NCBI RefSeq assembly: GCF_011745625.1
Contig: NW_027191455.1
Location: 496,001-560,000 of the forward strand
DNA length: 64,000 bases
Direction of reading: 5' to 3'
From: Cladosporium halotolerans
Taxonomy: Eukaryota
Under the pieces are notes generated by a model. It was not told the DNA's origin. It ran no database searches and saw nothing but the letters and a program-made list of their open reading frames with translations. Both the position numbers and the translations under genes were made by a program. Below, in pieces: positions 18,112 through 22,500 of this stretch (position 1 is the stretch's first letter; each line of letters begins with the position of its first letter).

Positions 18112-19492
18112 ATCTTTGTGTCCGATGGCGCGGTGAGACCGGACAGGCACCCAGATGTACAGGCGGGATGCTAGGAGTGACGGTGCGATGGCAGGCAAGG
18201 ATGGAACCTGGCCCCAATCTGGGTTGTGCCACATTGGCTCTTGACAGCAGGTCCCTGCGGTGGTTCGCCTTGGGCTGGGACACTGCAGGCGCCTCCTGTA
18301 CTGTCAAGCCCGCTGTGGCGGCAGTCACACGATCTTTTTCCGGCATATATCGTTACACCATCTAATTTGCCTGGGGCGGTAGGCGGCAGCTGACAGCTGC
18401 ACTTCGACATCATCGGCGTCGACGGCTGTTGATCTGGGTGAGGTGCAGCGCGCTTGGAGAGACAGTGTGTAATATTTGACGAAGGATTGAGAAGCAAGGT
18501 AGTATCCAACCCCTGGTTTTGTTTCCAATACATAAAAGAGTCTGCACCTTTGGGTATCTGTGATTACAACGAATGAAAAGAAGAGAAGGGGGGAAAAAAA
18601 AGCCGATGAAAGCTAAACCCTGAAGACGCGCTATAGTCCAAGTGCCGTTCGCCTCTTCAATTAAGCCATGCTCACGCCCGGCGCGAGTAGACAAGAAGCA
18701 AGCGGCAGCGCGTGTAGTCAAAAAAGATCCATCAAAACCCCTGCGTCAGACGGAATGAAACGTCGCCGACGACGCCTGATTTTCCAACCCTGCCGCCCCG
18801 GTCGAATCCAAGCCACAGAGGCTGCGACCAGAACGCCAAATTGTGGAAATATGCCCAAAGTAATTTTACAGGTAGTAGTGATGAATTGTCCCGGTGAAGC
18901 AGTGCTGTGCCGGTGCCGTGGTTCCGTTCCTAGAACCCCTGGTGTTGCCACCGATGTACCCCAGATCTTATTTTTTGGAAGTCCAAACGCCATGTGCCGA
19001 ATGAGAGTGAGTCGCAGTGTTGCTGTGATGCGATTCGGTGGGAAGGCGTGCCGCCCGCGTCGGAATGGAGACGGTGCGAGGCGACGGACCGAGAAAGCAG
19101 AGTGAATGAGGTCGCTAAGAACGCTGGACGAGATATTATGCAAAACCGGAAAGGATTTTTAGAAAAACGATGGTCGAAGAGGTGTGACCGAGAAAGCGAG
19201 TGTGTGTGTGTGTTGGCCAGCAGCGAGGTTGTGGTTGGTGTTGACCGAAGTGTGAAGTGAAGGCAGCGTCGGCGTGCTGTGGAGCGCGTTAGTTTTGACT
19301 TTCGGCAATCAAATTCGGGCATGCAAGTTCCCTGCAGGCCGGGTGTGGATACGTACAGGGAGGAAGCAATGGTGCTTTCGGCTCCTCACATGCGGCTGAC
19401 TGTACCGACGAGGGTGTTGGGGTTTTGCGAGGTCGGCGAGAGTATCGCGACGACGAAATGTGCGCACGCGACAGCTGGCGATTGAGGCGAAT

Positions 19493-19594
19493 TTATCGTC
19501 TCTTGGGCGGCGGCTTGGGCTTGGGAGTGCCGGTGGTGTCGTAGGCGCCGCGACCCATGATCATGTCGGACTCGTTGAACACCCGGGTGATCAT
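19493..19594 (-). CDS. Putative 33-aa microprotein MITRVFNESDMIMGRGAYDTTGTPKPKPPPKRR
   Basis: Good fungal start context (CTCACA-ATG) and strongly C/G-ending codons. Canonical 5'-UTR intron 19698-19623 (CAG|GTGAGT...TACTGAC...CAG) and 3'-UTR intron 19356-19277 (GTACGT...CTAAC...CAG). Pyrimidine-rich promoter-like tract upstream on the minus strand (~19900-20110). Confidence 0.68.
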   Translation of the reverse strand: MITRVFNESDMIMGRGAYDTTGTPKPKPPPKRR

Positions 19595-22500
19595 TGTGAG
19601 AAAAAAAAAGTTGTGGAAAGGACTGGCGCGGACGGTCAGTATATATCGGCGCCAGGGGCGTGTTTGGCGACGAGGCAGTCGCACAAGGGTTGACTCACCT
19701 GGAGCAAGGGCAGCGAAGTACCGGCGTCGGGCAAACAGACAGCCTGGCTGGGACAAACGAGCTGGGATGCGGGAGGGCGGGCTTGTCGAGCGCGCTTGGT
19801 GGAACGGAGGCGATTGCGGTGTCAAGGATGGTGGACTGGCGTTGGAATGCGGCGCGGGATCATAAGGCGGCGCCTCGTGCGATGTGCTGTGGGAGCTGTG
19901 GGAGCTGGCGGGCAGTTGGGAGCTAAGGAGCGTGAGGCGGCGATTGCGCGCGCGGAGGGCTGGTTGCAGGGTTGCAGTGAGGCGTGCTGGCGGGCGCGGG
20001 CGGCGTGGTCGAGGAGCGGGAGGGTGAGGCGGCGAGTGGGAGGGCGGAGAGCAAGGAAAGTGAGGGCGAAGATGGAAGACTAAAGAGACACGGCGGCGGC
20101 GGCGGTGATATAGCTGCGCGGTCGATACCAGCGAATTTGGGCGGCAGGGCGGCGCGCGGACACGCCCCCTGGCAAGCGAGAGAGACATCAATTTGCCTGG
20201 GGCGGCGGCAGGCCTCGCGCTGGCTACGTCAAAGCGCGATGGTTTGGGACAGTGCTGCGACGGGCGTGGACGGGGAAGCAGGATGAAACAGGCGCCCCTT
20301 TCGATCGCCAGCCGCTAGGGCGCCCGCCTGCCCGGCACGGAGGGCGACTAGCAGCTGGGCCGCCGGCTAGAAGCGACTAATGCAGGAACGCCTTCTGCCG
20401 CGCCGGCCGGAAGCCCGTCACCTGGTTGCTGGCGGGAGAGAGGGCTGTATGTAGGGATGTGCTGGGTGGCAGACGTGCAAGTGTACTGGCCCTCTGCGGT
20501 GTGTGTGCGTTGTGTGTGCCGCCTGGACGTGCAGCGCGCCCCGTGGTAGCGTCGCCCGCCAGATGCGCATGCAAGCCACCTGCACCGGCGCCGCCTGTGT
20601 ATGCACGCACTGCAGCGTAGACAGGTTCGACGGTACGCCCCCAGATGCCACAGTACGGTACCTCACTTACCTGACTGCACACTGCATGTCCGGCACCGGC
20701 AGGCCCAGCGCACCCGCGCCACAGCACACCTCACTGCACCCGCTGCACCCACACGCCCGCACAGTCAGCTCACCTCGCTCCCGCCTCCCGTAATCACCAC
20801 TGCCCACTGCCCTCTGCCCTCCGCCCTCCGTATCACCAGCACACCCTCGCGACTCGCGCCCGTCCGCGCCGTGTCATTGCCGCGCTCCATCCAATTTGCC
20901 TGCCCGCTTGGGCCGCGGCGCTGCCAGCCCGGGAGCCGCTCCGCCCAACGCCCGACTCGTGCGCCCGCACTAGAAGGCCGCCAGAAGGAGGGCAGCGTGC
21001 GCGCTCCGAGGCACCTGCCCGCCCACGTCCACCGCGCCAGCACCGCGCCAGCACCGCCCTCAGATCGCAACACGAGGAGCCGCCAGCCCTGGCCCCGGCC
21101 CCGGCCTCCCGGAAGATTGCCATCGCCTGCCTTCGAGAAGGCTGCGCGCGCGCCCATCCCTACCGCGGCCACGCACGCGAACGCATCATCTCCTCCGCGC
21201 GACTGCTCTGCCACCCTGCGCCCAACCCGCGCCTCGCCGCCCGGCACGCCTGACCGCGCCGAGGTCGTCCCAGCCTTTGCCTTTCGCCCGGCACTGCGTC
21301 AATCACCGCCAATCCGCCAGGAATCAGTCCGTCAATCAGACCCGCCGCTCTCGTCAGCGCTGCCGGCGCCGCTGGTCCCCTGACGCATCCTGCACGCTGC
21401 CGTCCCCCAAATCCGGCGCGCCGCCTGCACCATCCTGCGCCAGCCCGCCCACAAGGCTGCAGGACGGACAGGCACGCGAGGCACGCGAGTCGCACCTCTG
21501 CCGAAACGCTCGCCAACCTGTCAAATCTCATCTCTCCCAAACGAGCCCAGCGTGCACCAGAAACACGGCTGCCGAGCGCCATTTCGCAGCGCAAGGGTCT
21601 CCCCTCCGCGGCCTCACCACCCGTTTCCATCATCCCTCTGCCTCCCATCCTGCCCTGCCCCGTCGGCGCTATCGCCGCCCTTATCGTCACATCCGGTCGC
21701 GTGTCGCAAACCCTCGCTCGAAACAGCCCCAGCACAGAAGAAAAAAAATCGAAACGCACGCCCGTCTCAGCACTGGCCAGAGCGCTACATCACCACAAGG
21801 CGGGCGTTTGCTGTTTTCCGTCGCCCTGCGAGGGTTTTCCTGTGTATCCCCGTGGTCTGTCCGTCGCCCAAACAAGGCCATCCGAGGCACACCCTGCTCG
21901 TCACCGAAGCAGGCTTGATCCTTTCTCGCCTCCCGTCTCGTCTCGTCTCGCTTGCACCGTGCTGGCATGCCTTGCTTTGCTCCAACCGTCGACGTGTGCG
22001 TAGACCACCTAGCTAGCTCATCCGCGGCACGCGGAAAGGCAGAGCCATAACCATCCGCGCTGCGCTGGACGTGCGTTATTCCTGTCTGTCCCACCCATCC
22101 GGGCAGCTGTCTCCGGTGCAGTAGCGTGCGTTTGCCCCCAACGGTCGTACAGCACATGTTCGCAGCGGGCGGCGCGCTTGCAGGGCGGGAGATCCGGGCC
22201 CTGCTTACAAGCTCCACCGCGGGTCGCGGCTGTGTGCTGCTGTGAAACGTGAGCAGGCCCGAGGTTTTGGGAGACAAACACCTCACTCAAGCCTGGACCG
22301 GAAGATACCTTATTAAAGGAATGGGATCGCGGGCTTCGGTGCGAGCTCCCCGGATTGATGCGTCGCTCTGGAATTTTCCTCCTTCCCATCACGGCACGAC
22401 TCGTTTGCAGGCCAACCCCGTCGCAGGACAGTCGTAGCGTCGAGGCAAACCCTGCGCGCGGCGTTGATCAGTCGCGTGGAAGAATGTCCCTGCGGACCTG

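Follow-up and report, generated by a model that had tools for sequence, protein, structure and literature searches.

The minus strand of a 64,000-nucleotide (nt) stretch of the Cladosporium halotolerans genome (RefSeq assembly GCF_011745625.1, contig NW_027191455.1, positions 496,001 to 560,000; the whole stretch is referred to here as the window) carries a spliced gene that stands alone and encodes a peptide of 33 amino acids, a member of a family that has no described function. The transcript and both of its splice junctions are seen in contigs from several runs, and comparison of the coding sequences shows purifying selection at the amino acid level, conserved ends of the open reading frame (ORF), and deep conservation. 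Judged by this comparison, the small ORF (sORF) stands far beyond chance expectation and is not a chance ORF.

Selection on the amino acid sequence

Family members are ORFs of 30 to 34 residues that start with M-I-x-R-E, continue through a polar or acidic linker of 5 to 7 residues and a single hydrophobic residue (Met or Phe) into an invariant core, G-R-G-A-Y-D-T-T-G-x-P-K-P, and end with a Pro/Lys(Arg) tail of 9 to 16 residues and a stop codon. The window peptide contains M-G-R-G-A-Y-D-T-T-G-T-P-K-P, followed by a tail of 11 residues; its C terminus is K-R-R, and it has no Cys. From the loci described below, together with the window, 39 distinct coding sequences were extracted, and the 31 that have 40 codons or fewer were compared, with 8 longer distinct ORFs (L013, L015, L016, L017, L019, L020, L031, and the L033 group) set aside. 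Over the 13 core codons of these 31 sequences, there are 1, 1, and 13 variable sites at codon positions 1, 2, and 3, respectively. Ala is encoded by all four of its codons, Gly by three or four, and each Thr by four, whereas Arg4 is encoded by AGA, AGG, and CGG, which represent both Arg codon families. The sole amino acid change in the core is T/V at position x; otherwise, it is the same in 31/31 canonical coding sequences.

Ten near relatives, with 66 to 70% identity to the window over 1.0 to 1.7 kb, display only synonymous differences across M-I-M-G-R-G-A-Y-D-T-T-G-T-P-K-P-K-P-P-P-K, except for L010, which has Ile in place of the first Met. Identity among them drops from 0.92 in the core to 0.31 directly past the stop codon, and in the distant loci, the DNA is alignable at 19559-19517 only. 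The GC content at third codon positions of the sORF is 0.88, versus 0.82 in the adjacent Glyoxalase_3 gene and 0.75 in the Stb3 gene, a value reached by 0/24 other ATG ORFs of 25 to 45 codons in 18112-26149.

Among the 157 database proteins whose C terminus lies no more than 20 residues past the motif, the tails are 9 to 16 residues long and contain 52% Pro and 28% Lys/Arg; PPP is found in 131/157 tails, and no PP at all is found in 9/157. The residue preceding the core is Met in 119 of these proteins and Phe in 26. Because Phe also occurs there, the Met before the core represents a conserved hydrophobic residue and not an obligatory alternative start; initiation at the in-frame Met11 or Met13 of the window peptide would yield forms of 23 or 21 residues, respectively.

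Structure of the transcript

Four runs were compared over 17201-27200. The X1, X6, and X11 contigs, which come from three runs in three studies, skip exactly 19623-19698 and 19277-19356, and both skipped stretches read CT..AC on the plus strand, that is, GT..AG on the minus strand. X11 is recorded as RNA; X1 and X6 are assigned to RNA by guess. The X1 contig (2,090 nt) spans 18009-20252 and is probably fused with the 3' untranslated region (UTR) of the convergent gene, while the X6 and X11 contigs extend over 18923-20034 and 18594-19829, respectively; on the 3' side, X6 contig coverage goes as far as 18513. Within the 266 nt of exon 2, there are 1 (X1), 2 (X6), and 2 (X11) mismatches to the window. 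The X2 contig 18745-19598 is unspliced across intron 2, and intron 1 falls between two X2 contigs and is bridged by none of those listed. Because the contigs remove both introns, the mature RNA consists of three exons, with a noncoding exon 1, the ORF in exon 2, and the 3' UTR in exon 3 (Table 1). Its layout is an ATG-poor 5' UTR of ~0.4 kb with one intron, the 33-codon ORF, and a 3' UTR of ~0.8 kb with one intron. Exon 1 is pyrimidine-rich (49% C and 19% T over 20110-19699) and probably starts near ~20050, downstream of the TATA-like box.

Intron 1 has the donor ctccag/gtgagt, the branch site atatactgacc, and the acceptor gcgccag/tcc; the sORF starts as ctcacaATG, with the ATG at 19594-19592, and runs through 33 codons to TAA. 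Judging by such signals, an intron-like GT...CTRAC...AG arrangement that ends ~10 to 30 nt before the ATG is shared by the near relatives and the majority of distant loci. The donor, branch site, and acceptor of intron 2 are retained in 10/10 near relatives. A donor of intron 1 that reads gtgagtca is seen in L014, L022, L034, L037, L045, and L048, which represent separate lineages, and in the near clade; we take its last seven letters to resemble an AP-1/Gcn4-type site, which may be a chance likeness.

A first-pass annotation, made by a model from the letters of the DNA, had described a canonical intron at 19698-19623 behind a CT-rich tract, followed by CTCACA-ATG and 33 codons with two internal in-frame Met codons. 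These elements are all confirmed: the intron signals are present and the intron is removed in the X1, X6, and X11 contigs, the tract has the composition given above, both Met codons are in place, and the translation is identical letter for letter. That gene structure was incomplete, however, as it lacked the second conserved intron, in the 3' UTR, although 19277, the start coordinate of its entry, is the last base of that intron. Similarly, the annotation placed the gene in a region of ~8 kb without recognizable genes, which agrees with the lack of Pfam, Rfam, or tRNA matches there, but part of this region (to ~24416) lies under an STB3 RNA contig. The Rfam scan (17900-24500, E ≤ 1) and the tRNA scan were empty, no Pfam family was found in 11 longer ORFs of 18668-25275 or in the two downstream ORFs tested, and both introns are too short to host a small nucleolar RNA (snoRNA) and have no snoRNA match.

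Table 1. Coordinates of the micropeptide gene, its conserved elements, and the flanking genes in the window
Feature	Coordinates	Strand	Evidence or remarks
Promoter-proximal conserved blocks	20140..20270	-	Include tgacgta 20231-20225 and ccaggggg 20172-20165
TATA-like tatat	20112-20108	-	Just downstream of the promoter-proximal blocks
Exon 1, C-rich noncoding 5' UTR	19699..20252	-	RNA contigs, joint at 19699
Ultraconserved noncoding block	19671..19760	-	Straddles the exon 1/intron 1 junction, reaching ~28 nt into intron 1
Intron 1, 76 nt, 5' UTR	19623..19698	-	RNA contigs X1, X6, X11; ends 28 nt before the ATG
Exon 2, carrying the sORF	19357..19622	-	Single uninterrupted piece between both joints in X1, X6, X11
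Coding sequence of the 33-residue micropeptide, including TAA (19495-19493)	19493..19594	-	Translation and homologues
Intron 2, 80 nt, 3' UTR	19277..19356	-	RNA contigs X1, X6, X11; begins 136 nt past the stop codon
Exon 3, long 3' UTR with conserved noncoding blocks (e.g., 19071-19160)	18594..19276	-	RNA contigs
Glyoxalase_3 gene	17302-18111	+	Flanking gene, convergent with the micropeptide gene
Stb3 gene (STB3)	26150-27283	-	Flanking gene on the other side

The sORF among the ORFs of the mRNA

ORFs were read in the spliced RNA, which was assembled by script from the contig joints. The presumed 5' UTR, counted from the estimated start at ~20050, contains no ATG in 10/10 near relatives, compared to 1.7 to 3.0 expected, so that the AUG of the sORF, which has A at position -3, is the first AUG of the mRNA. 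The sole ATG in the presumed 5' UTR of the window, at 19863, opens a 13-codon upstream ORF (uORF) that is not conserved. The 173-codon upstream ORF, which starts at ATG 20188 and whose TGA overlaps the ATG of the sORF, has TTG instead of this ATG in 8/8 near relatives that cover the site; the ATG also sits upstream of the TATA-like box. Downstream of the sORF, the 91-codon ORF that starts at ATG 18993 has no start codon in the relatives, and the ORFs of 91, 120, 107, and 130 codons find weak, fragmentary matches in the near relatives, some of them with stops. Depletion of ATGs in the 3' UTR is weak and inconsistent (4 to 12 observed versus ~10.5 expected). Since no downstream ORF is conserved, the sORF is not a uORF; the next gene downstream is the convergent Glyoxalase_3 gene, which is also found downstream in L003 and L012.

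The peptide family and its distribution

In the 40-residue window reference search, 5/5 short matches share the M-I-T-R-E-like start and G-R-G-A-Y-D-T-T-G-T-P-K-P. A HMMER search with the window peptide (P0001) against 1.84 billion representatives retrieved 32 proteins at E ≤ 1e-3, each with at least one copy of the core, and profile searches retrieved 88 longer and 190 short database proteins, with the best 120 of the 190 short ones listed. A scan of metagenomes with the alignment, in which the search pattern was limited to Y-D-T-T-G-[TV]-P-K, produced 235 pattern matches, 56 of which were confirmed and represent 49 distinct loci; a regular expression finds the motif in 48/49 of these loci, and tblastn with the peptide matches 49/49.

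The named members come from Sordariomycetes, Dothideomycetes, Eurotiomycetes, and Leotiomycetes, with the lineage checked for three. All organism names among the matches listed belong to genera that, beyond the three checked lineages, we take to be members of Pezizomycotina. Examples include Neurospora crassa NCU03451 (B12F1.170) and Sordaria macrospora SMACR_12796 (33 residues), and there are further clean gene models in Venturia (31 residues), Fusarium venenatum (31 residues), and Pyricularia (32 residues), as well as in Colletotrichum tanaceti. Members were also found in Trichoderma, Penicillium, Zymoseptoria, Verticillium, Coccidioides, and Trichophyton. Thus, the gene is present in model species (Neurospora, Sordaria, and Podospora), in major pathogens of plants and animals (Fusarium, Pyricularia, Zymoseptoria, Colletotrichum, Verticillium, Coccidioides, and Trichophyton), and in industrial genera (Trichoderma, Penicillium, and Thermothelomyces). 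An unchanged 13-residue core across this range of fungi implies that its role is important and its partner conserved.

All entries are labeled as hypothetical or uncharacterized, except for P0002, evidently mislabeled as “dihydrofolate reductase.” The gene models vary from 33 to 614 residues and have only the sORF in common, usually at the C terminus (in 74/105 motif-bearing proteins). The sORF of the window itself, read through intron 1, appears in the databases as a 234-residue “protein” (P0007), and P0040, named for Cladosporium fusiforme, ends in the sORF with an intron read-through much like those in the window's clade (L002 to L012). Because many genome annotations bury the gene in spurious long “hypothetical proteins,” the locus in the window offers a clean, RNA-supported gene model for reannotation. 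The first-pass annotation expected gene finders to miss the gene altogether; more often, they attach spurious extensions to it, and models of 31 to 33 residues do exist in Sordaria, Venturia, F. venenatum, C. tanaceti, and Pyricularia. The conservation that it had asked for is seen, as the G-R-G-A-Y-D-T-T-G core is invariant in the relatives, with synonymous divergence only. Its other claims about the peptide hold: the sORF is not a uORF, with no conserved ORF downstream and a convergent next gene; and the peptide belongs to no described family, given that Pfam, NCBIfam, and PDB profile searches returned no significant match.

In some lineages, 2 or 3 copies of the unit that comprises the acidic linker, hydrophobic residue, core, and Pro/Lys tail are found in tandem within a single ORF. 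Such tandem forms, seen in Xylariales, include P0008, P0009, P0012, P0015, and P0111 (all named Xylariales) as well as P0010, P0014, P0017, P0018, and P0026; at least three separate entries come from Anthostomella pinea. In several other loci (L016, L033/L035/L036, and L019/L020/L023/L031), the frame continues past P-K-P into unrelated sequence that opens with donor-like GT motifs, which may mean that the copy is decaying or that an intron interrupts the tail. In L013, a 208-codon Lys/Glu-rich ORF opens with the motif.

Relation to known families and peptide systems

The window peptide matches no Pfam family at E ≤ 1, and neither this peptide nor P0008, P0014, or P0003 matches any NCBIfam family at E ≤ 10; P0048 has a 9-bit match only (E = 0.65) in NCBIfam. 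A PDB profile search returned no hits at E ≤ 10, and the best cluster in the ESM Atlas reached 0.81, below the lead level of 0.9. AlphaFold, run with the family alignment, predicts no secondary structure, with a predicted local distance difference test score of 73.8 and a predicted template modeling score of 0.27. Full-text literature searches, which did not extend to supplementary tables that may list NCU03451, found no paper on NCU03451, B12F1.170, the core motif, or neighboring identifiers. As far as these searches show, the micropeptide family has not been described in print for filamentous fungi. The hypothetical proteins NCU03451 and SMACR_12796 are true homologues, with the same M-I-x-R-E start, core, and Pro/Lys tail and 31 to 34 residues in clean models, although such entries come without a family name, a Pfam model, or a described function, and many are extended spuriously at the N or C terminus. 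In animals and plants, there is ample documentation of functional micropeptide genes, and NCU03451 provides a tractable entry in Neurospora to the function of conserved fungal small ORFs.

The closest working analogy, and by this likeness a possible model for the action of the fungal peptide, would be the insect gene pri (tarsal-less, mille-pattes), which, as described in PMC8435736, encodes peptides of 11 to 32 residues on a noncoding-looking RNA that act in trans via the E3 ligase Ubr3. The two systems share short peptides, a single short invariant motif, and the presence of several motif copies; however, they are not homologous, as the insect motif is LDPTGQY and its copies are spread over individual small ORFs within a polycistronic RNA (PMC8435736). 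By contrast, the fungal peptide is encoded by a single ORF, with the 2 or 3 copies in Xylariales all within one ORF, and has a different motif and a Pro/Lys tail. The LDPTGXY motif is absent from the window peptide, whose mRNA has a single conserved ORF.

Other known systems resemble the family in part. Conserved-peptide uORFs and arrest peptides, a group that includes the arginine attenuator peptide of fungi, comprise ORFs of ~24 to 33 codons that are under selection at the amino acid level and lie upstream of the conserved main ORF that they control. Like the arginine attenuator peptide, the sORF is a short selected ORF in a fungal mRNA, and as translation nears its end, the conserved stretch would occupy the exit tunnel; unlike it, the sORF has no conserved main ORF downstream, its AUG is the first one in 10/10 relatives, and it has multicopy forms. 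Fungal repeat-containing precursors of ribosomal natural products and Kex2-processed repeat proteins typically have signal peptides, dibasic sites between the cores, clustered tailoring genes, and a patchy distribution. The family shares with them short precursors with repeated conserved cores in some lineages but appears to differ in its polar N terminus, its variable neighbors, and a core that is near-invariant over four classes; inspection of the window peptide reveals no hydrophobic signal-peptide-like stretch at the N terminus. Lipopeptide pheromone precursors of the a-factor type have a C-terminal Cys-containing prenylation box, which is absent from the window peptide (it ends in K-R-R and has no Cys).

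Conserved noncoding elements

One ultraconserved noncoding element, block 19671-19760, has an identity of 0.83 to 0.89 in 10 relatives that are otherwise ~67% identical to the window, compared to 0.44 to 0.60 in its flanks, and shows no third-position pattern; it is better conserved than the N-terminal half of the sORF. The RNA structure predicted for this block has z = -1.07, with 0/33 predicted pairs covarying, and includes a hairpin that would pair the 5' splice site. As the block barely varies, a structure is neither supported nor excluded; the block may serve as an element that controls splicing or translation. In the 3' UTR, blocks 19071-19160 and 18831-18950 show identity of up to 0.93 (0.93 at 19130-19101); they contain 2-nt and 3-nt indels and are therefore noncoding. 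The 3' part of intron 2 (19281-19310) has an identity of 0.85, versus 0.31 to 0.47 in the adjoining exon sequence.

The promoter-proximal blocks contain stretches that are invariant with respect to the near relatives, with a mean identity of 0.82 at 20180-20151 and an nhmmer match in 8 near relatives; their tgacgta and ccaggggg sequences may represent sites similar to the cAMP response element and the stress element, respectively. Further conserved blocks lie upstream at 20870-20932, 21422-21581, and 22092-22255, up to ~2.6 kb away. The upstream conserved blocks are compatible with a complex promoter. When the noncoding blocks were sought in the distant loci with nhmmer profiles, they were found in the near clade only.

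Gene neighborhood

The neighbors of the gene vary by lineage and include a 2OG-Fe(II) oxygenase, a TRP channel, p16-Arc, and a glyoxalase-like protein. A tblastn search with Stb3 had no match in the 6-kb flanks of the loci, which end short of the expected position of STB3. ARC15, the gene for the Arp2/3 subunit p16-Arc, which is interrupted by introns in these loci, is found on the same strand 1.1 to 2.3 kb downstream in 9/31 loci with at least 1,300 nt of downstream sequence (L021, L034, L038, L040, L041, L043, L044, L045, and L046), which represent at least four peptide subtypes. Among canonical sORFs outside the window's clade that have enough flanking sequence, this linkage is seen in 9/10. 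The window has no p16-Arc gene, and neither it nor its near relatives show the linkage. The idea that the sORF acts as a uORF of ARC15 was rejected, given that the interval between the two contains 9 to 26 ATGs and is not a scanning leader. ARC15 proximity is the one contextual lead to a partner and points to the Arp2/3-actin system; Pro/Lys tails are typical ligands of SH3, profilin, and WH1-type actin regulators.

Possible mode of action

On balance, we lean toward the view that the sORF is translated into a disordered linear-motif micropeptide that acts in trans and is made from an mRNA with features typical of targets of nonsense-mediated decay (NMD). Acting as a short linear motif, the peptide would dock on a partner conserved in the cell, and its Pro/Lys tail could provide a second contact, of either a polyproline or an electrostatic type; the level of the peptide would be set after transcription, probably via NMD of its own mRNA. 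Action in trans is suggested by the lack of a downstream cistron, by the position of the sORF at the first AUG, and by the tandem copies of the whole unit, as expected of a binding module. Control after transcription is probable because the mRNA has a long 3' UTR and an intron within it. In Neurospora, according to PMC7746235, which cites Zhang and Sachs (2015), NMD is triggered by uORFs, long 3' UTRs, and introns near the stop codon. If the mRNA is indeed an NMD target, this would make the output of the peptide conditional. The Met-Ile N terminus could, as we presume, be an N-acetylated hydrophobic anchor.

Several considerations weigh against this interpretation. Translation of the sORF is deduced from the evolutionary signal; the assignment of two of the three spliced contigs, X1 and X6, to RNA is a guess; and the contigs show neither the ends of the transcript nor its expression level. 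Given the strongly conserved noncoding blocks in the transcript, the RNA may itself be functional. Finally, the core would lie in the ribosomal exit tunnel while the Pro-rich tail, with PPP in the great majority of cases, is being decoded, a geometry that would also fit an arrest peptide acting in cis.

A regulatory sORF of the latter kind, in which the core in the tunnel and the polyproline tail at the peptidyl-transferase center stall or slow the ribosome near the stop codon, appears unlikely, even though it would account for the PPP in 131/157 tails and for a stop codon placed 9 to 16 residues past the core. Such a stall might respond to the status of eIF5A or polyamines and determine how stable the peptide's own conserved RNA is under NMD, or govern some other activity of that RNA; in lineages with ARC15 downstream, it might instead affect the expression of ARC15. 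The long 3' UTR, whose conserved intron begins 136 nt past the stop codon, would suit this scheme, as would the uORFs, long 3' UTRs, and introns near stop codons that trigger NMD in Neurospora (PMC7746235), the conserved noncoding blocks in the same RNA, and the presence of ARC15 downstream on the same strand in 9/31 loci. However, the window has no conserved downstream ORF, and its next gene is convergent; where ARC15 is present, 9 to 26 ATGs separate it from the sORF with no scanning leader; 9/157 tails have no PP; tandem forms with 2 or 3 copies are poorly explained by a stall; and the noncoding blocks are confined to near relatives, whereas the conservation of the peptide extends beyond them. 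We consider it very improbable that the sORF product is processed, modified, or exported to yield a bioactive peptide, either pheromone-like or a ribosomal natural product, with the core as its mature part. The ORF is short, cores are repeated with acidic spacers in some lineages, many tails end in basic residues, and the neighbors could provide tailoring enzymes (Glyoxalase_3 or the 2OG-Fe(II) oxygenase), but the N terminus is polar, with no signal-peptide-like stretch on inspection, there is neither a prenylation-type motif nor a Cys residue, the neighbors differ by lineage (TRP channel, p16-Arc, oxygenase, and glyoxalase-like), and the near-invariance of the core over four classes is unlike the variable, patchily distributed precursors typical of fungal natural products.

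That the ORF represents just one coding exon, the first or the last, of some larger protein, or that stop-codon readthrough extends it, we find scarcely credible. Database models of 84 to 614 residues might suggest so, among them the 84-residue NCU03451 model and P0079, which run past the tail, and in the spliced mRNA of the window the frame stays open for 160 codons past the TAA. Yet the RNA contigs show no splice inside the ORF or at its end, the extensions are unrelated between species and of low complexity, with the sORF alone in common, conservation collapses past the stop codon, the conserved blocks downstream carry 2-nt indels, and the downstream frames match weakly and in fragments, some of them with stops. 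A plain noncoding RNA with a chance ORF, finally, would agree with a transcript of ~1.3 to 2.1 kb that has just a 33-codon ORF along with conserved noncoding blocks, but it is next to impossible to reconcile with the almost exclusively third-position variation of the core among the 31 coding sequences, the conserved start and stop codons, the use of both Arg codon families, and the fact that in distant loci the ORF alone is alignable; the codon pattern of the core effectively refutes it. Returning to the trans-acting micropeptide, a bolder version of this proposal would make the peptide the founder of an old class of regulatory micropeptides in fungi, comparable to insect pri; it would dock, through its invariant core and polyproline/Lys tail, on a core machine of hyphal growth, and its own mRNA would be a translation-coupled NMD target. 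We regard this version as quite unlikely.

Contigs upstream of the gene

The RNA contig of STB3 continues without a joint to 24416 (X1), ~25194 (X6), and ~25077 (X11), that is, 1.0 to 1.7 kb beyond the STB3 stop codon, which would correspond to either a very long 3' UTR or an overlapping transcript. Coverage by contigs in 20250-24400 is low or absent in parts. There are also X1 contigs over 20944-21191, 21175-22814, and 23268-24194, and the ORFs in these regions have no Pfam match.

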